Below, piece by piece: positions 31 to 31,289 of a DNA stretch of 33,894 nucleotides. Location of the stretch: positions 1 through 33,894 of the forward strand of contig JAOZSP010000002.1 of NCBI GenBank assembly GCA_029939615.1, in the 5' to 3' direction. Source of the DNA: Candidatus Izemoplasma sp. (GTDB lineage Bacteria > Bacillota_I > Bacilli_A > Izemoplasmatales > Izemoplasmataceae). The notes under the pieces are model-generated. The model ran no database searches. It worked only from the letters and a program-made list of their open reading frames with translations, and had not been told where the DNA came from. A program made the translations under genes and the position numbers. Numbering within the stretch: position 1 is the stretch's first letter; the number at the start of each line of letters is the position of its first letter.

Positions 31-59
31 TTGACAAATTCTTAGATATAGGTTAAACT
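31..59 (+). promoter_or_regulatory. sigma-A/sigma-70 promoter for the protease-lipoprotein operon
   Basis: TTGACA (31-36), 17-bp spacer, TAAACT (54-59); predicted transcription start near 66. Confidence 0.75.
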
Positions 60-65
60 TAAAGT

Positions 66-150
66 AATTAATACGATAACTATATAACAATATAAATACG
101 CAAAGTCTCAGAGCTAAACTATGAAAATATTATGCTGGCTGGATTGTGCA
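66..150 (+). ncRNA. c-di-GMP-I (GEMM)-like riboswitch aptamer, variant or degenerate
   Basis: ACGCAAAG core (98-105). P2 helix AGTCTCAG (104-111) pairs with CTGGATT (139-145). Tetraloop-receptor-like GCTAAA...TATGC (113-118, 131-135). Upstream hairpin TATAT-AACA-ATATA. It lies between a promoter and a leader terminator. The 5' half deviates from consensus. Confidence 0.6.
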
Positions 151-155
151 AACTC

Positions 156-187
156 TGTAGACTTTTATTGGTCTGCATTTTTATTTA
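156..187 (+). terminator. Leader intrinsic terminator (putative riboswitch expression platform)
   Basis: Stem TGTAGAC (156-162) / GTCTGCA (171-177), then TTTTTATTT, all upstream of the RBS AAGGAG. Confidence 0.7.
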
Positions 188-209
188 CATAATTATAAAG
201 GAGTACCCT

Positions 210-926
210 ATGAGAAAACTACTAATAATATTTCTATTACTTTTTACTACCGGTTGTGAACAAATTGATGAAGAAGCTTTAAAAGAAGAAATAAAACAAG
301 AATTAGTAGATGAATTACAGTTTGATATGGATGATATGAATAATCATCTAATAGCTTTATCAAATAACGCTAAAGCTTGTACTGTATCAATTGATGTTAC
401 ATTAACTGAATCTTCTAGTACTCATGGCTCTGGAGTTGTTTATAAGAATGAAGGTAATGATTACTATATATTAACAAATGAACATATTATTAGATACAAT
501 CAAAGTGTTGAAGTGTATTTACCTAGTGAAGATAGATATATAGAAGCGATAGTTACTAAAGAAGATAGTGAAGTTGATTTAGCGATATTAAAAATATCTT
601 CTTTAACAGAAATAGATATTTGTGAAATAGTATTAGCTAGTTATGAAGTTGGTGAATTAGTTATTAGTGTTGGTGCTGCGGTAAGTATTGATTATTCAAA
701 CACAGTGACTTTAGGTGTTATCTCACGGATAGAAGATAACTTAATACAACATGACGCTGCAATAAATCCTGGTAATAGTGGAGGACCACTATTTAATATG
801 AATGGACAATTAATTGGGTTAAATGTCTCTAAAATAAATACTACTACTTTAGGAAGCACAAAAGTATCAGTTGAGGGGATAGGATTTAGTATAACAGTTG
901 AAGAAATTCTTTTATTTATCAATTAA
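210..926 (+). CDS. Trypsin-like (S1C/HtrA-type) serine protease lipoprotein without PDZ domain
   Basis: Triad motifs TNEHII, DLAILKI and INPGNSGGPL. Signal peptide with lipobox FTTGC. Start moved from 132 to ATG 210 because AAGGAG precedes it. Confidence 0.9.
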   Translation: MRKLLIIFLLLFTTGCEQIDEEALKEEIKQELVDELQFDMDDMNNHLIALSNNAKACTVSIDVTLTESSSTHGSGVVYKNEGNDYYILTNEHIIRYNQSVEVYLPSEDRYIEAIVTKEDSEVDLAILKISSLTEIDICEIVLASYEVGELVISVGAAVSIDYSNTVTLGVISRIEDNLIQHDAAINPGNSGGPLFNMNGQLIGLNVSKINTTTLGSTKVSVEGIGFSITVEEILLFIN

Positions 927-967
927 GATAGACTACATATAGATAATAAAAAAAGGAGATGATAGTT

Positions 968-3900
968 TTGAAAAAATTACTAATGTTTGTATTTTTAATT
1001 ACCGCAACTTTAACTTTGACAGGATGTGATTTCGGTAAAGAAGAAATCGATGATTTTATTGATCCCGATAGACAATTAATCTTAGATGATTGTCAAGGAA
1101 TGGGAGATTATATTGTAGTTGATGGAGTATGTATACTAATAGGTGATATAGTATCTCAAAATATCGTAATAGGAGGAGACGAAACAAGAGTTCAGTATCT
1201 TAATGGTGTTGAATTAATGAGTGGGTTTGTAGCTGATTTAGCAGGCTCAAAAGGTTTAGCGGTCGTTTCTAAAGAAGTGTTTGAAAACGATATTAATTTA
1301 GGAGGATCAACTTATTATGATTTAATAAATTTAGCTGCTGACGATGATCCTGAAGAAGACGCTGAGAATATCATTGTAAAACTAACAGAAGAAGGATTTT
1401 TTGAAGAAGTTGGATTTACTAATGAAGCGGGAGTAGATGTTGTAATCACTTCAAATCCTTTAGCTTTAGAAGTGTTTGGAGCATATACAATTGTTGTTTT
1501 TGAAGTGGATTTAGGGTATGAGTATTATACTCCTGATTTCACTCAAAGAGTATTTGATTCACTTCATGCAGGTGGAGTATATTTGATTCATAACGAATCT
1601 GGAAAGATGTTTGCCACTAAAGAAATAGAACAAGTGGAAAACGTATATACTTATACTGAAAATCATTCAAGAAACATTAACATAATGGTTACATTGAATG
1701 TGCCAGTAGTTGAAATTCAATATGTTTTTCAACTTGATGAATTTGGTATGCCAATTTTTGGTGATGATGGTATTGAACTCTATGATGAAGTAGAAGTACC
1801 ACTTTTTGATCAAGATGGTAATCCAATAGTATTTACTGAGGGACCTATTTTAACAGAGTTTCTAGAAGTACCAGTAGTAGAATACTACAAGGTTCAACAA
1901 GTAGATGAAGATGGTAATCTTGTTTTTGATGAAAACCAAGAGCCTGTTTATGATGTTGTTGAGGAACCAGTTTTAGATGAAAATGGTAATCCGAAAATTG
2001 AACTACAAGAAGTGCCAGTTTTAGATGATGACGGAAATGTTCAATATCAACAAGAATTTGAAGTTGAATTATACATTGAAGATATAAAAGCAATAACGAT
2101 TACTGAATATTCAGCAAGCGTTACAGATAATCCGGTATCAAATATTGCACATCGATTTGCGGATAAAATTATAGCTGAATATTACAACTGGAATTATTAT
2201 CGTGTAAATAATTACATGATAACATCATTTGGTTTTGCTGCTAGTGAAGAAAATATTTTCTATACTGAAATGAAAGTAGACGAAGATGATGGTAGTAAGA
2301 GTGAAAACTTTGTAATGAAAATTTCATTTGATAGTACTACTAATGAAATACTACTTGAAGAGTATCTAAATGCTACAAAAGCAGGATTCACAGAATGTGA
2401 AATAATTATTGATCCTATTAGTGATAACATTATTTGTGATTCTTGGGATGGTAATCTTAAAGTGTACTCATCAACATACGGCTTAAAAGTAATTCCTGAT
2501 ACTGAGAACTTTAATCCTGTAACGTTCCCTAACGGAGAACTTTACTTCTATGATTCTATGGAAACTTACGTTGAAGAATTAGGATATTATACAACACTGT
2601 TATATACAATTAATGATGATGGAACACTAGAATCATATTTTATTGAACTTGGTGAAAAAGAAGAAGTTTGCTTTGGTGCTTGTTATAATAGTATAAATGT
2701 TAATTTCTTTAACCAAGCTGGTGAAGCATATGGAAATATTGGATATGTAGATTTACAGTTATCTGATGGTGACAAAATGTTTTTAAATGCTGATCTTCAA
2801 GTTCAAAGTATTGGTGAATTTTCTTCAGAAAGACCTGAATGTACTGATACAAATGGATGTTGGTATAACACTAAAAACGAAGTAATAGATGCTGCAGGAG
2901 AATTTGTTACATCATTTGAATCATCAGTTGTTATTTATCCAGGAGATCCTGTTCCGGGATACTTAGTAACATATCAATTAGATTCTCAAACGGTATATGA
3001 ATATGAACAAATGTATTCAGATGATGACTTGATTTGTGATAATGAAATAGGATGTACTAGCCATATTAATCTTGTTGACTATTCAATAAACTCTGAAGGA
3101 TATTGGATGTATGATAGTATTATTGTTGAAGACGGTGAAAAAGTCATAGAAAGTATTGAATTAGCTGAAACAAATACTGCTGTTTATGAGTATACAAAAG
3201 ATGTAGTTGGTGAAGTATGTGGATTTACTACTTGTGAAGAGTATGTAAACATTCAATTCTATGATTTTGCGGGTGAACTATTAAGTGAAACTAATACTTT
3301 GATTCAAATCGCAGAAGGAGAAACAATACCTCTTAATATCGAATACCATATTACAGGAGATACAACAGTAACAGAAAAAACAAATCTTTGTACAACCTCT
3401 ACAGGATGTTATGAGTATTATGAGACATCTGATAGTATTCACTATTATATTTTCTACGAACAAGGGGATACAATGTATGAAACAATTGATTTTGCAGACA
3501 CAGATAAAACAGTTGTTACAAGTAAAACACTAACTAATGAAATATGTACTGATATTAATGGATGTTATGGAGGAGAATCTGAATATATAATCGTTGATAA
3601 CGAGGGAGTAGAATTATATAATTTCTCTAATTATGCTTTCGCTGAATACGGTTATAGAGTTCCTTTCAAAGTAACAGTTAATATTAATGATGTAACAATA
3701 AGATATCGTAAAGAATCACTAATCGATGATATGATTTGTGAGGAAACAATTTGTCGAAGCCATGTGGAAATTGTAATTGGTACTACTATTAATAATGTTT
3801 CACTTGGTTGGGCAGATATTGCATTCGCACAAGATGAGAAAATCATGATAAGGATTATCTTAGATGACGATACAGTGAAAACAGTAGAATCTGAAATGAT

Positions 3901-4579
3901 TTGTGATATTGCTGAAGGTTGCTATATCTATTCAAGCAACTACATAATTGTAGATTCAGAGGGAACTGAATTCCAAAATGAAGATCCAAATTGGTATAAA
4001 CAACATCTACCAGTATTCTTCGCTAATGGTGATAGTATTCCAGTTGATAATCAATTTGAAGTAACGTTCGAAATAATTGCTGCTGAATATCTAAAAAATA
4101 GAATATTTGTCCATGAGTTCTTATATAACTTAAACAATGTAATTGTTCTTGATGAAAACTTATATTTAATTGAACAACAATCTTGGGCTATAGGAAATGA
4201 TAATTTCATTTTAGAGTTTAACGAAACAACAGGAAGATATTCTGCGAAATATACAAACATATCAGCAATAACAGAAATAACTGCATTCGGAGATGGATTT
4301 ATTGCAATAAACGATGATGAAACTGCTATTATGCATTTCTCATATAATACAGAACTATCAAGTGAGGATTACTATTACTTTGATATCGAAAATTTAACAG
4401 AAGGATTATTAATTAACGGAGTAAATGATCTAATCGTTGACTATGATGGTTCAATCTACTTCAAAGGAGTAGACAACTTTATTCAAGATATTACTGGTTC
4501 AATAAGTGAAGATGGTGTTGTTACTATCGATACTGAATTTGTTGAACGACAAATAATTAGAGTAAGACCAATAAACTAA
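968..4579 (+). CDS. Giant (~1200 aa) acidic surface lipoprotein with DxxG hairpin repeats and Cys-pair repeats; function unknown
   Basis: Lipobox LTGC after a KKLL-hydrophobic signal. Very D/E-rich. TTG start at 968 is 9 nt from AGGAG, whereas ATG 959 abuts the RBS. Confidence 0.85.
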   Translation: MKKLLMFVFLITATLTLTGCDFGKEEIDDFIDPDRQLILDDCQGMGDYIVVDGVCILIGDIVSQNIVIGGDETRVQYLNGVELMSGFVADLAGSKGLAVVSKEVFENDINLGGSTYYDLINLAADDDPEEDAENIIVKLTEEGFFEEVGFTNEAGVDVVITSNPLALEVFGAYTIVVFEVDLGYEYYTPDFTQRVFDSLHAGGVYLIHNESGKMFATKEIEQVENVYTYTENHSRNINIMVTLNVPVVEIQYVFQLDEFGMPIFGDDGIELYDEVEVPLFDQDGNPIVFTEGPILTEFLEVPVVEYYKVQQVDEDGNLVFDENQEPVYDVVEEPVLDENGNPKIELQEVPVLDDDGNVQYQQEFEVELYIEDIKAITITEYSASVTDNPVSNIAHRFADKIIAEYYNWNYYRVNNYMITSFGFAASEENIFYTEMKVDEDDGSKSENFVMKISFDSTTNEILLEEYLNATKAGFTECEIIIDPISDNIICDSWDGNLKVYSSTYGLKVIPDTENFNPVTFPNGELYFYDSMETYVEELGYYTTLLYTINDDGTLESYFIELGEKEEVCFGACYNSINVNFFNQAGEAYGNIGYVDLQLSDGDKMFLNADLQVQSIGEFSSERPECTDTNGCWYNTKNEVIDAAGEFVTSFESSVVIYPGDPVPGYLVTYQLDSQTVYEYEQMYSDDDLICDNEIGCTSHINLVDYSINSEGYWMYDSIIVEDGEKVIESIELAETNTAVYEYTKDVVGEVCGFTTCEEYVNIQFYDFAGELLSETNTLIQIAEGETIPLNIEYHITGDTTVTEKTNLCTTSTGCYEYYETSDSIHYYIFYEQGDTMYETIDFADTDKTVVTSKTLTNEICTDINGCYGGESEYIIVDNEGVELYNFSNYAFAEYGYRVPFKVTVNINDVTIRYRKESLIDDMICEETICRSHVEIVIGTTINNVSLGWADIAFAQDEKIMIRIILDDDTVKTVESEMICDIAEGCYIYSSNYIIVDSEGTEFQNEDPNWYKQHLPVFFANGDSIPVDNQFEVTFEIIAAEYLKNRIFVHEFLYNLNNVIVLDENLYLIEQQSWAIGNDNFILEFNETTGRYSAKYTNISAITEITAFGDGFIAINDDETAIMHFSYNTELSSEDYYYFDIENLTEGLLINGVNDLIVDYDGSIYFKGVDNFIQDITGSISEDGVVTIDTEFVERQIIRVRPIN
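1694..2050 (+). repeat. Acidic D-x-x-G beta-hairpin repeats inside the giant lipoprotein
   Basis: LDEFG, GDDG, FDQDGN, VDEDGN, FDENQ, LDENGN, LDDDGN. LxVPVVE recurs 56 aa apart (1694, 1862). DNA repeat CCAGTTTTAGATGA at 1967 and 2015. Confidence 0.8.
2669..4080 (+). repeat. Eight degenerate 52-65 aa Cys-pair repeats inside the giant lipoprotein
   Basis: CFGAC (2669), CTDTNGC (2840), CDNEIGC (3035), CGFTTC (3218), CTTSTGC (3389), CTDINGC (3545), CEETIC (3737), CDIAEGC (3902). Each is followed by a G(D/E)x-hydrophobic-like turn. Confidence 0.8.
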
Positions 4580-13582: not shown

Positions 13583-15595
13583 TTAGTGTTCACTAAAAAT
13601 TGATTTTAGTTGTCCTTCTTTTATTAGTTCAATCATGATGTCAGAAATGTCTGGATTAAACTGGGTACCTTTATACATTGTTAGTTCTTTAATTATTTCT
13701 TCAGGATTTTTTTGCATTGAGTACGGTCTTAATGTGGCCATAGAACTTACGCTGTCAGCAACACATAGAATTTGGGATCCAAGAGGTATTTTGGATTTGG
13801 CTAGTCCATCAGGATATCCACTACCATTCCACCACTCATGATGGTGTTTAACTAATAAAGCAATTTCTTTAAGTGAAGAACTTTTACTTAATATTTCGAA
13901 ACCGAAGATTGGATGTTCTTTTACTTTTTTATATTCTGATAATGTTATTTTTGATGGTTTATTTATTATTTCGCTTGGAACTCCAATTTTACCAATATCA
14001 TGAACAATACCTGCCCAATATATTCTTGATACTTCATCTTCTGGTAATTTCATTCTTTGTGCGATTATTTGAGATATTTCAGCAACGTCTTCACTGTGCC
14101 CTCCTGTATATTTATCATATAGTTCTAGTGTTCTAATTAAACTGAGCACAATTTCATCTTTTAAATCATTGTTTCTTAATGATAACTTATTCATATCAAA
14201 GAATGAGTTGATTAGTTTTTGAAATGCAGCTATATTATTAAAATCTTCTTGGGATATTGTGTTTGGACTTCCTTCTTTTATATCAAAAGAAATTACTCCG
14301 TACTCTGAATCAAAGACTTCTATAACAATTATTATTGATTCCTTTAATTTAGGAATTGAATTAGAGAATAAAGGAAATCTCTCTTTAAGAATTTTTTCAA
14401 ACTCCATAGCAAAATCATGTGTGTGTCTTGGGGTTATCCTTTCCCAATTAATGGAATTCGATTTAATGTCTAAATTATTTAAGAAGTCTAAGTCGTAGCC
14501 TTTAGCAGATAGAAACTCAATATTATTATCAGTATTTGTAAAACAGAAAGAACCGTCTATCTTATCAAATAACTTCATTGCTATTTTGTGAATATCTATT
14601 AGATAACTATTTTTATATGTAATATCTTCAGTATCAAGAGTATCTTTAACTTTTATCAAACTTAGAGTTGATTCCATCATTTCTTCTAGGCGTTCATTAG
14701 TTTTAATTAGGGACTTATTTTGTTCAATTACTTTTATAACTAGTGTTTTTCCGAAAATAGAGATGATAATTGCACTCATCAAAAATAGATTAAAGCCAAC
14801 GATTGAGTGGTTATCGACTGCCATGTCATTAATTTGAAAGTACACAATATTGTAGGTTAGGATATATGCATAGCTTAAATATATCATCATTCTGTAATTG
14901 TAGTTAAAAATAGTAGTCATGAAGAAGATAAGAATAATACTTGCATAAATAGTAAACTTAAAATTTGGGAATAGATGCATAAAGTATATATAACTTACTA
15001 TAATAAACAAAATTATAAAGATAGAAAAGGAAAGTAATTTTTTTAATGTAATAGAAAAATAATCATCCTTTTTCCCAGAATATATTACTGTCGTTGTAAA
15101 TATCGAAATACTTACTAAAGCCATTATAAGAATTTGACTAAAGATATTGATGAACGAGGTGTCAGTTTGAAAACTGAAATAGATACTGGAGGGAACAGAT
15201 ACAACTAATGAAGTGATGAATACGGATAGAAGATATAGAAAACCTGTTTTTATTGATTCTGGCGTTTCACACTTAAACCTTGTTGTTAAGGCGTCAAAGG
15301 CAAGCATAGGGACTAATGACATTGCGCAAATTGCCATGCCGAATATGAAAGAATCAAAAAATGAATTATTTATGAGAATACGGATAAAAAATCCAGATGA
15401 AAATAGTCCAGTAATAATACCTGGCAGTGCTTTTTTCCCAAAAGTTTTGTAAAAACCAATGGCTAAACCTAAGAAAATCATTATGGGATAATGATTGTCA
15501 AGCTTTTCTATAAAAAGTTCTTCGAGAATAACTGTAACAGCAAGAATGATGCCGATAGCAATATTCTTGTTAATATTTGACGCTTTTCGTAACAT
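13583..15595 (-). CDS. Membrane-bound HD-GYP cyclic-dinucleotide phosphodiesterase (multi-TM sensor, GAF-like linker, HD-GYP)
   Basis: DKYTGGHSEDV, VHDIGKIG, HHHEWWNGSGYPDGL, VADS and RPY; hydrophobic N-terminal ~290 aa; RBS AGGGGTG. Confidence 0.9.
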   Translation of the reverse strand: MLRKASNINKNIAIGIILAVTVILEELFIEKLDNHYPIMIFLGLAIGFYKTFGKKALPGIITGLFSSGFFIRILINNSFFDSFIFGMAICAMSLVPMLAFDALTTRFKCETPESIKTGFLYLLSVFITSLVVSVPSSIYFSFQTDTSFINIFSQILIMALVSISIFTTTVIYSGKKDDYFSITLKKLLSFSIFIILFIIVSYIYFMHLFPNFKFTIYASIILIFFMTTIFNYNYRMMIYLSYAYILTYNIVYFQINDMAVDNHSIVGFNLFLMSAIIISIFGKTLVIKVIEQNKSLIKTNERLEEMMESTLSLIKVKDTLDTEDITYKNSYLIDIHKIAMKLFDKIDGSFCFTNTDNNIEFLSAKGYDLDFLNNLDIKSNSINWERITPRHTHDFAMEFEKILKERFPLFSNSIPKLKESIIIVIEVFDSEYGVISFDIKEGSPNTISQEDFNNIAAFQKLINSFFDMNKLSLRNNDLKDEIVLSLIRTLELYDKYTGGHSEDVAEISQIIAQRMKLPEDEVSRIYWAGIVHDIGKIGVPSEIINKPSKITLSEYKKVKEHPIFGFEILSKSSSLKEIALLVKHHHEWWNGSGYPDGLAKSKIPLGSQILCVADSVSSMATLRPYSMQKNPEEIIKELTMYKGTQFNPDISDIMIELIKEGQLKSIFSEH

Positions 15596-20568: not shown

Positions 20569-21750
20569 ATGATTGAACATATTTTCATTAAAAACTACAA
20601 GGCATTTAAAAAAGAAAATATACCTTTAGATAGAAATACATTACTAATAGGTTCAAATAGTTCAGGGAAGACTACAGTTTTAGAGGCTTTAGACCTATTT
20701 TTTAACAATGTATTACATTATCACTATATTATTGATAAGACAAAAGACGTTATAGTTGAGATCCATATAAATGATAATAGATATCGCAAAGTATACAAAG
20801 CACCTAGGTATAACATTGATTTTTCTATTTGTATTGGAGATATGTTTGATATAAATCATATTAAGTATTTATATATCCCAAAAATAATTGATAATCCTAA
20901 GTTATTGAATGACATACTGACTATTAATTTGACAGGTAAAGTATCTCCTGAAGAGCAAGTGAACATTTTCAAAGTATCCGACTATATAGACGGAGTCATT
21001 GGAAATAGTAATTATAAACTATTTAAGACATCATCAAAATATGAAATGAATATTGATGATAATGTGGAACTTAATAAGGAAGATTATTGTCGCATTGTTT
21101 CTAATATAACTTATCAACACTTGATTATCGGAATTGATAATTATGAAGACAATTTCGATATAGATGCGTTAAATAAAATTATAAAATATTCCTATCAAAC
21201 AATCTTTATTACCAACGATAAGAAGATAGTTAAGGACTATAATTATTTCGTCTTTGCACTTTATAAAGGAAACAAAATTGACGATTTAGATACCATTAAG
21301 AAGAGACTATATAAAGGATTTAATAAGATATATCTGCTAGTTGAAGGGAAATACGACGTAAATTGGTTCGAAACAGCTTTGAGACTTTTAAATAAAGATG
21401 ATAAGTATACTGTCATTCCTTGTGGTGGTAGTGGGAACATTGCTTATGTTGAAGAACAATTGATTAAAGAAGGATTTAAAACGATAGTAGTTATGGATGG
21501 AGATACTCTAAAAAAAGGTTCCTTAAAAAGAGATGTTATTGAACAATACGCAGATGTAAGTTATATTAATAATCGATTTAGTTTGAATCTAGAATATATG
21601 CCTAAAAAGAAACATGCTTTTTTCAAAAAGTTTTACGTGAAAGATGATGTAGTAAAAAATGTGTTAAGCCGATGGGCAAAAAAGAATTTAACATTGCAAA
21701 ATGAATTTGTAAAAGAGTTAGATATAATCCTAACAAAAGGAGTGGTTTAG
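20569..21750 (+). CDS. Compact OLD-family-like protein (ABC-type ATPase N-terminus plus TOPRIM domain)
   Basis: IKNYKAF and Walker A GSNSSGKTTVLEAL; TOPRIM motifs LLVEGKYD, IPCGG and MDGD, then IEQY. Walker B and H-loop appear degenerate. Confidence 0.75.
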   Translation: MIEHIFIKNYKAFKKENIPLDRNTLLIGSNSSGKTTVLEALDLFFNNVLHYHYIIDKTKDVIVEIHINDNRYRKVYKAPRYNIDFSICIGDMFDINHIKYLYIPKIIDNPKLLNDILTINLTGKVSPEEQVNIFKVSDYIDGVIGNSNYKLFKTSSKYEMNIDDNVELNKEDYCRIVSNITYQHLIIGIDNYEDNFDIDALNKIIKYSYQTIFITNDKKIVKDYNYFVFALYKGNKIDDLDTIKKRLYKGFNKIYLLVEGKYDVNWFETALRLLNKDDKYTVIPCGGSGNIAYVEEQLIKEGFKTIVVMDGDTLKKGSLKRDVIEQYADVSYINNRFSLNLEYMPKKKHAFFKKFYVKDDVVKNVLSRWAKKNLTLQNEFVKELDIILTKGVV

Positions 21751-22223
21751 TGGATTATTATATAGAGTGTCGAAACGTTTTTAATAGGAAAAATATTAGT
21801 ATTTTTGATTCTGAGGATGAGGTAGTTGCTAATGTTGAATTTCATAAAGCATCAGACAAGTATCAAATTGAGATTAAAAATATTTTTACTAATAAGACAT
21901 ATTACTGTAAATCAAATCCTTTGAGGATTAAAAAGCGATACATCGTTTTTGATGGTAATCAAAAACAGGTTTCCAATATAGGCCTAGGAGTAAAAATTAT
22001 TCATAGTATTATTGAAGCAGATAAATATTATTTTGTTAAAGCTGCTTTTTGGAAAATTAAATATACTATTTATGATAATAGAACTGTAATAGGTGGTTTA
22101 AATATTATTAGAAAAAATAGAAAAAGATTTTATAAAATCACGGTGAACAACGATGATTTTGTCATTGTTCTATCATTGTTTTTGCTAGCGCAAGCCGTTA
22201 GAATAAAAAGTATAGTTATATAG
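21750..22223 (+). CDS. Divergent LURP-one/tubby-C-terminal-like protein
   Basis: GTG start overlaps the upstream stop; RBS AAGGAG. Same length and layout as the next ORF (YYxxxxxF...IxD, beta-rich body, hydrophobic terminal helix). Confidence 0.6.
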   Translation: MDYYIECRNVFNRKNISIFDSEDEVVANVEFHKASDKYQIEIKNIFTNKTYYCKSNPLRIKKRYIVFDGNQKQVSNIGLGVKIIHSIIEADKYYFVKAAFWKIKYTIYDNRTVIGGLNIIRKNRKRFYKITVNNDDFVIVLSLFLLAQAVRIKSIVI

Positions 22224-25958: not shown

Positions 25959-26956
25959 ATGGAAGAATACATGAAAAAAGACAAGAATAACGAGTTGTTG
26001 AAATAGCGGCTGACCTGTATGGTGTAAACTAGCTTATATTATGAAAGTAGGAGGGTTTGAGAGCTTTGTTTTTGAGTTTTCTGATGGTAGTGAAAGTTAT
26101 ATTTTAAGGTTTGTTCATAGTAGTCACAGAGTATACGAACAAGTACTCGCAGAACTAGAATTTATTGAGTATCTTGATAGTAATAATTCCCCAGTTTCGA
26201 CTGTAATTCATTCAATTAACAACAAGACTGTTGAAAAAATTGAGATTGATGACATAAGATACCTTTCCGTTTGTGTATTTGAAAAGGCTCATGAAGTATT
26301 GGTTACTGAAACTGATCAAACTGATGAATTTTTTATAATGTTCGGTGAGAAATTGGAAAACTTCACAATCTCACAAAATCCTTTAATCCAATAAATAAAA
26401 GAATAGATTGGACAGAAGAAAATTATATGGGATAGCTGTAAAAGTTTTAGAAGAAAAAGACCGTAAAATCATTGAAATATACGAAAAATTGCTAGAAAAA
26501 ATAAATATATTGCCAAAAAACTGTGATAATTTTGGACTGATTCATACAGATATTCATTTCTATAATAAGTACATATATAAAGGAGAACTAACGTTTTTTG
26601 ACTGGGATGACTCGGCATATAAGCATTTCATTAGTGATTTAGCAATAGTGATATTTTACCACTTTATGTATAAAGATGTTTTACAAGAAGGTATAAACGT
26701 ACAAAGTCGGCATATTTTAGCGCTTTTAGTCGAAGGATATAATCGTCAAAATCTTCTAGATATTTCCTTCCTCTGGAAATTGAATGATTTTTTGCTTCTT
26801 CGATCAATTGTTATTTACATTCTTCTTGTTGCTGCAGCTACTTCAAAAAGTAAAAATCTTATACTCCATAGTTTCATTAGAAAAACTAGAAATTTTATTA
26901 TTAATTGCGTTCCATTTTTGGACATGAGTTTTGTTTTGGATGGATTTGAAAAGTGA
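25959..26956 (+). pseudogene. APH/homoserine-kinase-type phosphotransferase broken by four frameshifts
   Basis: RBS AGGAGG and ATG 25959. Successive -1 shifts join MEEYMKK / VVEIAADLYG / MKVGGFESFVFEF..FGEK / IGKLHNLTKSF..WTEENY / IAVK..GLIHTDIHFYN..FDWDD. Confidence 0.8.
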
Positions 26957-29779: not shown

Positions 29780-30118
29780 ATGAAAAAGCAGATGATAAAA
29801 TTGAATTATAAAAGAAGTATAATAATAGGAGTAATATTAATGATTATATTATGTATTATGATAGTTTTTTCTTATATGTATAATCAAATTATATTGCTAG
29901 TATTATCTGCTATATCATTATTGGTCAATGCAATAATGATGTTAATTATAATGTCAATAGATATGTTCAGAAGAGACAAAATACTAGACATCGAAGCATT
30001 GAAGAAACAAGGATTAACGATTATTTCTTGTAAAGAGTGTGGAAAAGAGAATGTATTAGAGGATATATTTTGTATATTCTGTGGTGATAGACTAGGAGAA
30101 GAAAATGAACAGATATAA
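29780..30118 (+). CDS. Two-TM protein with a single zinc ribbon
   Basis: Two hydrophobic helices, then CKECG..CIFCG; start uncertain. Confidence 0.75.
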   Translation: MKKQMIKLNYKRSIIIGVILMIILCIMIVFSYMYNQIILLVLSAISLLVNAIMMLIIMSIDMFRRDKILDIEALKKQGLTIISCKECGKENVLEDIFCIFCGDRLGEENEQI

Positions 30119-31289
30119 AAGAAATGTAAAATTAGACTATTATCATACGTTTTTCAGGAATTTTAATGTAACACAAGGAATTTGGTTACTCTTTCTTGTG
30201 TCCAAAGGTTTTACACTTTTTGAAATTGGAATATTCGAAGGAATTTTTCATTTGGCAAGTTTATCGATGGAAATACCATCTGGAGTAATTGCAGATCTAT
30301 TCGGAAGAAAGACAAGCAGGGTTTTAGGAATTCTTTCGTATCTTGTATATGTACTAATAATGATATCTAGTACAAATGTAGCATTTATAGCCGTTTCGTT
30401 CATATTCTGCGGAATTTAATTTGCTTTTGAATCGGGTAGTGGTGAGGCATTACTTTATGATTCATTGATTAAAACGGACGATGAGGAAAAATATCTCAAA
30501 ATTACTGGAATAAAAGAAGTTTTATATCAAGCGAGTTCCAGTATTGCCTTACTTGTTGGTGGTTACATTGCAATAGTAAAGTACGAATTAAGTTTTGTAA
30601 TTGTCTTTATTACCTTTGTTGTCGCATTAATCCCTATTTTACTTATGAAGGAAACTATTCAAAAAAGTGAAAGGAAACATAGATCAATAATGGAATTAAT
30701 GAACGAACACTTTTTTGATAGTACAAAATTTATTTTTTCAGATAAAAGGCTAGTATTTTTGATTTTAATCGGATCAATGATGGCTGCTCCTGTAACTACG
30801 CTATTTCTCTATTTTCAAATATACTTAGGTGAGTTGAATTATAGTTTAGGAATGATCGGAATTTTGCTTGGACTTCATTCAATATTTGGAGCGTTAGGTG
30901 GGTTTTTCGCGGAAAAGCTAGAACGAAAATTTAATGAGAAACTTATTTTGTATATTGTACCGGTTCTTATTGTGATTTCTATTTTATTGTTACAATTTGA
31001 CCACATTATCTTTTTACCCTTTATCTTATTGGGATTTCTTGATAGTTTATTTTATATAGTACTTGGATACTACATAAATAAACTGGTTCCATCTGAGAAA
31101 AGGGCTAAAGTATTAAGTTTTAATAGTTTTTGTTTCAGTATTGTTATGATTATTTTATTTCCAATAATTGGAATAATTGGGACGAATGTATCATTAAAAG
31201 TATCGTTTTTTGTACTATCTATAATCATTTCGATTTTCTATATTTTGCTATTAATTGTGCTTAGAAAGATAAAGTATTTCGTCAAGTAA
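30105..31289 (+). pseudogene. MFS transporter with a single in-frame TAA at 30417-30419
   Basis: ORFs 30105 and 30465 share a frame. The gap reads CGI*FAFESGSGEALLYDSL, a typical MFS segment. Motif A-like EIPSGVIADLFGRK; RBS AGGAG. Confidence 0.85.

Follow-up and report, generated by a model that had tools for sequence, protein, structure and literature searches.

The closest described relatives of the element considered here are the c-di-GMP-I (GEMM-I) riboswitches, for which we draw on excerpts of the published papers. In the Vc2 aptamer, one guanine of the ligand (G-alpha) contacts G20 and the other (G-beta) forms a Watson-Crick pair with C92 (PMC6140456), and the helix includes the pairs G21-C46 and C22-G45 (PMC11705072). 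The Clostridioides difficile Cd1 RNA is a transcriptional OFF switch in which aptamer and terminator coexist and compete with a transiently stable antiterminator that sequesters pocket bases; the excerpted sections of the same report describe no detectable P1 helix, a loss of binding when the tetraloop adenines were mutated, and little effect when the equivalent of G20 was changed to A or C (PMC9262584). Natural pocket variation is represented by the GEMM-Ib c-GAMP riboswitch (Geobacter Gs1761), which combines A20 with C92, and by c-di-GMP-I-UAU (RF03168) and c-di-GMP-I-GGC (RF03167), which vary at three pocket positions. The last letter of the name UAU we take to denote U92. Our literature search returned no account of degenerate c-di-GMP riboswitches and none of natural G20/U92 GEMM-I variants, and the papers it brought up did not name Izemoplasmatales, although the tables or supplements of Smith 2009/2010, Nelson 2015 and Weinberg 2017 may list G20/U92 variants.

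The DNA that we analysed, called the window below, is a stretch of 33,894 nucleotides from Candidatus Izemoplasma sp. (contig JAOZSP010000002.1), which starts with a putative riboswitch and the operon behind it. In our judgement this element is probably an ancestral c-di-GMP OFF switch whose sensing half has decayed in one lineage, and which is now likely a ligand-blind attenuator. Its features are as follows, with pocket positions in Vc2 numbering (column 11 of the RF01051 model is G20):

31 to 59, forward strand: sigma-70-type promoter-like site, TTGACA-17-TAAACT (10/12 matches)
65 to 151, forward strand: degenerate c-di-GMP-I (GEMM-I type I) aptamer (RF01051, 40.9 bits, gathering cut-off 35, E 1.4e-6)
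75 to 77, forward strand: G75, the retained Vc2 G20, followed by A76 at G21 and U77 at C22 (model alignment, orthologous leaders and census)
81 to 96, forward strand: P1b hairpin, all A-U with one A.A mismatch, loop ACAA (87-90) replacing GAAA (model alignment)
102, forward strand: A102, the retained Vc2 A47 (RF01051 alignment)
102 to 165, forward strand: predicted antiterminator, 102-108 with 159-165 and 109-113 with 153-157 (folding, conservation)
104 to 145, forward strand: P2 with intact core, tetraloop receptor (CTAA 114-117, TATG 131-134) and GG bulge 137-138 (model, folding)
147, forward strand: U147, by position Vc2 C92 (RF01051 alignment)
156 to 187, forward strand: intrinsic terminator, stem 156-163/170-177 with U tail 178-187 (-9.4 kcal/mol)
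198 to 203, forward strand: ribosome binding site AAGGAG, preceding ATG 210 (sequence)
210 to 926, forward strand: 238-aa trypsin-like serine protease, HtrA-like with no PDZ match (profile matches), with a lipoprotein-type signal (lipobox by eye)
959 to 4579, forward strand: 1206-aa acidic, cysteine-rich putative lipoprotein (open reading frame; no Pfam/NCBIfam match)

The preliminary description of this DNA had recognised a c-di-GMP-I-like element, and the covariance-model match, ungapped across all 87 positions, bears out that assignment. The same alignment agrees with it in placing A47 at A102 and C92 at U147, but G20, previously equated with C74, lies one base later, at G75, as judged from a posterior of * in every column and from the gapless alignment of the orthologous leaders in the same register. 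The C74 register would require indels that neither the model nor the orthologues need. Also in common with RF01051/Vc2, the window keeps the C44-G83 contact bases (C99 and the G137-G138 bulge) and a P2 that had rightly been called intact, since all 10 core pairs form and both receptor strands are present, and, in a host rich in c-di-GMP, it precedes genes for surface proteins. It differs in having no clear P1a, in U92, so that the base facing the ligand G-beta is U147 rather than C, and in two changes that had been overlooked: A76 faces C101 (a mismatch at 21-46) and U77 faces G100 (a wobble at 22-45), and because both partners are unaltered these changes are uncompensated. Given a two-base insertion, C149 could be a displaced C92. 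The absence of a GNRA loop had been noted correctly, although the loop in the model register is ACAA, and the AACA reported earlier (86-89) is the minimum-free-energy loop of the isolated hairpin; the receptor in P2 is thus kept and the loop that would dock into it is absent. Folded in isolation, P1b reaches -0.2 kcal/mol, versus -9.1 in the two closest related cassettes (L097 and L098). The window shares with GEMM-Ib the scaffold and an altered pocket base, but has G20 (G75) together with U92, and the genome yielded no Hypr GGDEF. Being G-A-U, it resembles the UAU and GGC classes as a variant of the three pocket positions, yet the UAU model gave no match at 65-151 of the contig (C157:65-151) up to E 10, and the GGC consensus has G at 47, where the window has A102. 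From its sequence we file the element as a degenerate homologue of c-di-GMP-I rather than a functional member; passing the Rfam cut-off is no guarantee that a switch works.

Because the aptamer begins 65 bases from the start of the contig and read depth in the best run was only about 7, we considered whether the odd bases are assembly errors close to the contig end, which we find extremely unlikely. A contig from run X1, which may be the source sample, spans 1-453 with zero differences, and one from run X5, of a different study, spans 81-293 and shows four differences, which all fall within 189-197. The loop and U147 were thus seen independently; bases 75-77 were seen in X1 only. Identity over 81-188 in the second study further indicates that the variant is not an accident of one strain. 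Another X1 contig joins the P2 region to a different, degenerate-looking 5' half at a loose end before window position 104, which may point to yet another decayed cassette in that community.

How unusual these bases are was gauged in a census of 96 aptamers, comprising 92 of 145 matches (the lowest-scoring ones and those in loci already examined) and the genome's own four. Position 20 was G in 91 and A in 5 copies, and position 92 was C in 82, U in 12 and G in 2, the G copies being probably one base out of register. A Watson-Crick 21-46 pair was present in 95 copies, the window being the single exception, and a GNRA loop in 86, with one of the 10 non-GNRA copies scoring 82 bits; only the window deviated at all of 21-46, 22-45, the loop and 92. 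When the P2 subfamily was compared separately (26 members, 32 conserved columns, two out-of-register rows dropped), the window differed at 6 columns, more than any other member, and 16 members differed at none; L012 and L015 differed at 5, largely with compensated pairs. The damage is uneven, with 5 of 14 conserved columns changed in P1b versus 0 of 17 in A47 and P2 (Fisher p 0.012, in a post hoc test of related sequences; p rises to 0.050 if the two dropped rows are retained). Such unevenness is not what plain neutral decay predicts, and selection therefore probably still acts on part of the element. The two halves also have different nearest relatives, P1b matching the orthologous leaders L036 and L037 best (21/27), and P2 matching L011, L097 and L098 best (32/33, versus 24 for the orthologues). 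This suggests, with low confidence since A-T drift could mimic the pattern, that the window copy may be a chimera in which P1b stems from the old protease leader and the P2-terminator half from a different cassette.

The expression platform is better preserved. The terminator, as previously described, is the sole terminator-like hairpin in positions 1-1000 (156-177 plus U tail). The proposed pairing of CAGAG (109-113) with CTCTG (153-157) is real and extends to a 12-bp antiterminator helix that, in folding predictions, removes the terminator 5' arm and sequesters A47, whereas the proposed TGCA/TGTA helix is unstable (+0.1 kcal/mol). The 7-base core of the antiterminator recurs at an identical 57-base spacing in L097, L098 and L120, and the 7-mer turns up in 0.35% of shuffled versions of 148-177. 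In transcripts that end at about 164-172 the antiterminator has a predicted probability of 0.92-0.98, the terminator wins in transcripts from 176 on, and L097 and L098 behave alike in both respects; the full-length RNA prefers the terminator by 7.5 kcal/mol (-21.7 vs -14.2 kcal/mol). Both downstream frames are open. Competition between the two helices, together with the core conserved in three related cassettes, supports the earlier suggestion of ligand-induced termination, and the cassette is thus a predicted c-di-GMP OFF switch. The predicted logic is that of Cd1, a ligand-dependent aptamer and terminator against an antiterminator, but the window antiterminator takes the P2 5' strand including A47, the window platform is short, and Cd1, according to the excerpts of PMC9262584, binds its ligand and needs its tetraloop. 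As in Cd1, a P1 helix is not evident.

Mechanistically, folding predicts that in the absence of ligand 102-113 would pair with 153-165 and remove the terminator 5' arm, and that bound ligand would lock A102 and the base of P2, and the terminator would form. With loop-receptor docking and the pair under the pocket lost and U at 92, affinity would probably be too low for switching during transcription. Read-through into the protease-lipoprotein operon would then be fixed and partial, set by the race between P2 and the antiterminator. Folding also indicates that U147-C149 can pair with G100-A102, which would extend P2 and close the pocket without ligand.

The operon places the element in an evolutionary context. 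True orthologues of the protease occur in 5 of 76 other genomes of the family (55-72% identity), and in four of these an aptamer lies directly upstream of the protease; the fifth has a canonical aptamer between the protease and the large gene. The orthologous leaders (L035, L036, L037, which equals L068, and L038) align in the window register without gaps, and all carry G20/A47/C92, GGC and GAAA at 56-59 bits. The conserved structure in relatives that bears on the preliminary description accordingly holds for canonical aptamers, present in these four distinct leaders, but not for the window's altered bases, which are in none of them. Of the 32 loci from a metagenome scan, one held a true protease orthologue, and its leader matched L037 exactly. 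Of five additional large-gene loci, two had an A20/C92 aptamer and three had no match. Judged from sequence comparison, the operon is commonly under riboswitch control, but this control turns over, its states being an aptamer before the protease, one between the genes, one of A20 type, or none found.

The closest aptamer-terminator modules, L097 (located before a GGDEF gene) and L098, are 81-86% identical to the window and both canonical. A third copy of the cassette has U92, a G22.G45 mismatch and an altered receptor region, and folding predicts that its antiterminator prevails even in the full-length RNA; its sequence marks it as a second, independently decaying copy:

L120 1488 to 1615 (G072:C203:391-476), minus strand: L120 cassette, just downstream of another aptamer

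The full variant of the window was found in none of 158 genomes of the order (BLAST), none of 151 genomes searched with a cassette model, and none of 19 pattern matches in genome contigs, and viral contigs gave 0 matches.

Whether the host could make another ligand was judged from its signalling genes. The genome (91% complete) has 22 GGDEF matches, one DAC gene and three other, canonical c-di-GMP-I aptamers. Hypr GGDEF domains are distinguished by Ser or Thr replacing Asp at the specificity residue, according to excerpts of PMC9140294; this residue was Asp in all 19 readable domains, the remaining 3 of the 22 being degenerate. No SMODS match and no cGAMP synthase (Hypr GGDEF or CD-NTase) was found in this genome, the PF21654 search having been run without a positive control. 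No Hypr Ser/Thr was seen in G070, which has GAU (G20/A47/U92) aptamers (12 motifs read from 14 matches), or in G004, which has an A20 aptamer (15 motifs read from 21 matches), so the pocket variants of this group do not go along with a known cGAMP synthase; moreover, A20 pockets can bind c-di-GMP, as stated in the excerpted part of PMC6140456. The window also encodes an HD-domain protein of 670 aa (13583-15595, minus strand) that resembles HD-GYP c-di-GMP phosphodiesterases.

The preliminary description had left two options, decay or another ligand. Decay fits better, since the changes are private to one lineage, uncompensated and absent from orthologous leaders, and the case for a changed ligand leaned partly on the misaligned G20. 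What remains of that case is that G20 with U92 would suit a flipped 3',3'-cGAMP (guanine on G20, adenine paired with U92) or a related dinucleotide, and we regard this as highly improbable. Pocket geometry makes an A-U pair at 92 plausible (PMC6140456), a G20A/C92U aptamer binds c-di-AMP (PMC7288161), selectivity can shift when the base of the tetraloop stem is changed (PMC9262584, each from excerpts), U92 arose several times in the order, and the genome has its DAC gene. Yet an RNA that had swapped ligands should have retained its scaffold, precisely the part damaged here, and the uniformly Asp-type GGDEF domains, the missing SMODS match, the absence of the full variant from every other genome searched and the lack of a UAU match all speak against it. 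Since U92 is common in the order, it is by itself no sign of either decay or a new ligand.

A more serious rival, although still an unlikely one, is a c-di-GMP OFF switch that works on, detuned to high c-di-GMP, with G20, A47, C44-G83 and P2 holding the ligand and a G-U wobble at 92. That the damage is uneven, that the variant persists in a second study, and that U92 occurs in 12/96 and non-GNRA loops in 10/96 copies all count against decay and leave room for such a sensor. In its favour are also the retained G75, A102, C99, GG bulge, receptor and complete expression platform, the abundance of GGDEF genes and canonical aptamers in the host, and the alternation of U92 and C92 aptamers before one gene type in a sister subfamily. 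In Vc2, C92U strongly reduced the response to c-di-GMP, with partial recovery at high c-di-GMP (excerpts of bioRxiv 10.1101/617340). Set against this are a 21-46 pair missing in no other census copy, a barely stable P1b and the abolished binding of tetraloop-mutated Cd1 (PMC9262584, excerpts), and the lesions are cumulative; in combination they lead us to infer that the RNA is largely ligand-blind. A decayed sensing half in front of a retained terminator thus remains our preferred account. Such a copy matters little in itself, but would offer a snapshot of riboswitch turnover in which the sensor half erodes while the terminator logic persists.

A different, intact-looking G20/A47/U92 (GAU) subfamily offers a more promising case of an altered or detuned pocket than the copy in the window. 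It comprises 22 copies (L250-L271, e.g., L255, L257 and L268) in 19 of 158 genomes, from seven genera and two families, with G20 in all 22 and a GNRA loop kept in most; C92 copies with a matching pattern number 16 in 14 genomes. Most GAU copies precede a gene with what we take, by eye, to be a SipW/TasA-like N-terminus, and genes of this type also follow their C92 sisters. In several GAU copies a downstream strand pairs with the aptamer 3' end ahead of a U run (by eye), suggesting ON switches. It is conceivable, but we think very unlikely, that the Izemoplasmatales repeatedly evolved a GAU pocket that reads another dinucleotide (e.g., a flipped 3',3'-cGAMP from an unrecognised synthase), with the 22-copy subfamily as its core and the window as an independent arrival with a remodelled P1b. 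If this were true it would amount to a new riboswitch specificity pointing to an unknown dinucleotide pathway, and the intact-looking subfamily would be the place for a test. A20/C92 (GEMM-Ib-like) aptamers were also seen in the group (L291, L292, L158, L206, L204, L185, L272, L275, L277 and L286), two of them preceding orthologues of the 1206-aa protein, and L274 carries C at position 20. A canonical c-di-GMP-I aptamer (L001, G000:C117:4504-4587, minus strand) lies ahead of three tandem MreB-like genes (by eye), an arrangement that recurs in many relatives and links c-di-GMP to cell-shape genes in the group.

The promoter described earlier was found again as a promoter-like site (TTGACA-17-TAAACT); such sites are no commoner than in shuffles (5 vs 7.2), so the call rests on conserved position, a TTGACA-17-hexamer lying at a similar distance 5' of the aptamer in L097 and L098. 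The mechanical open reading frame of the protease does cover part of the aptamer, as had been pointed out, because it starts at ATG 132, but homologues start at a Met matching 210. The resulting 264-aa product was rejected: its extension is absent in homologues, and three longer homologues have internal insertions instead. The 1206-aa gene is likely co-transcribed with the protease and follows it in L035-L039, L290 and L292; its product has internal repeats (by eye). Counting the present genome, 7 of the 300 searched in the class have the gene, frequently downstream of a c-di-GMP-I aptamer. The protease and giant-lipoprotein operon is a further likely member of the group's c-di-GMP regulon. 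Elsewhere in the window, an APH-family phosphotransferase (26041-26956) and an MFS transporter (30105-31289) each appear as two consecutive open reading frames and are possibly frameshifted. An AAA ATPase that has an OLD-like TOPRIM match may, together with the overlapping 157-aa open reading frame behind it (20569-22223), form a defence module.
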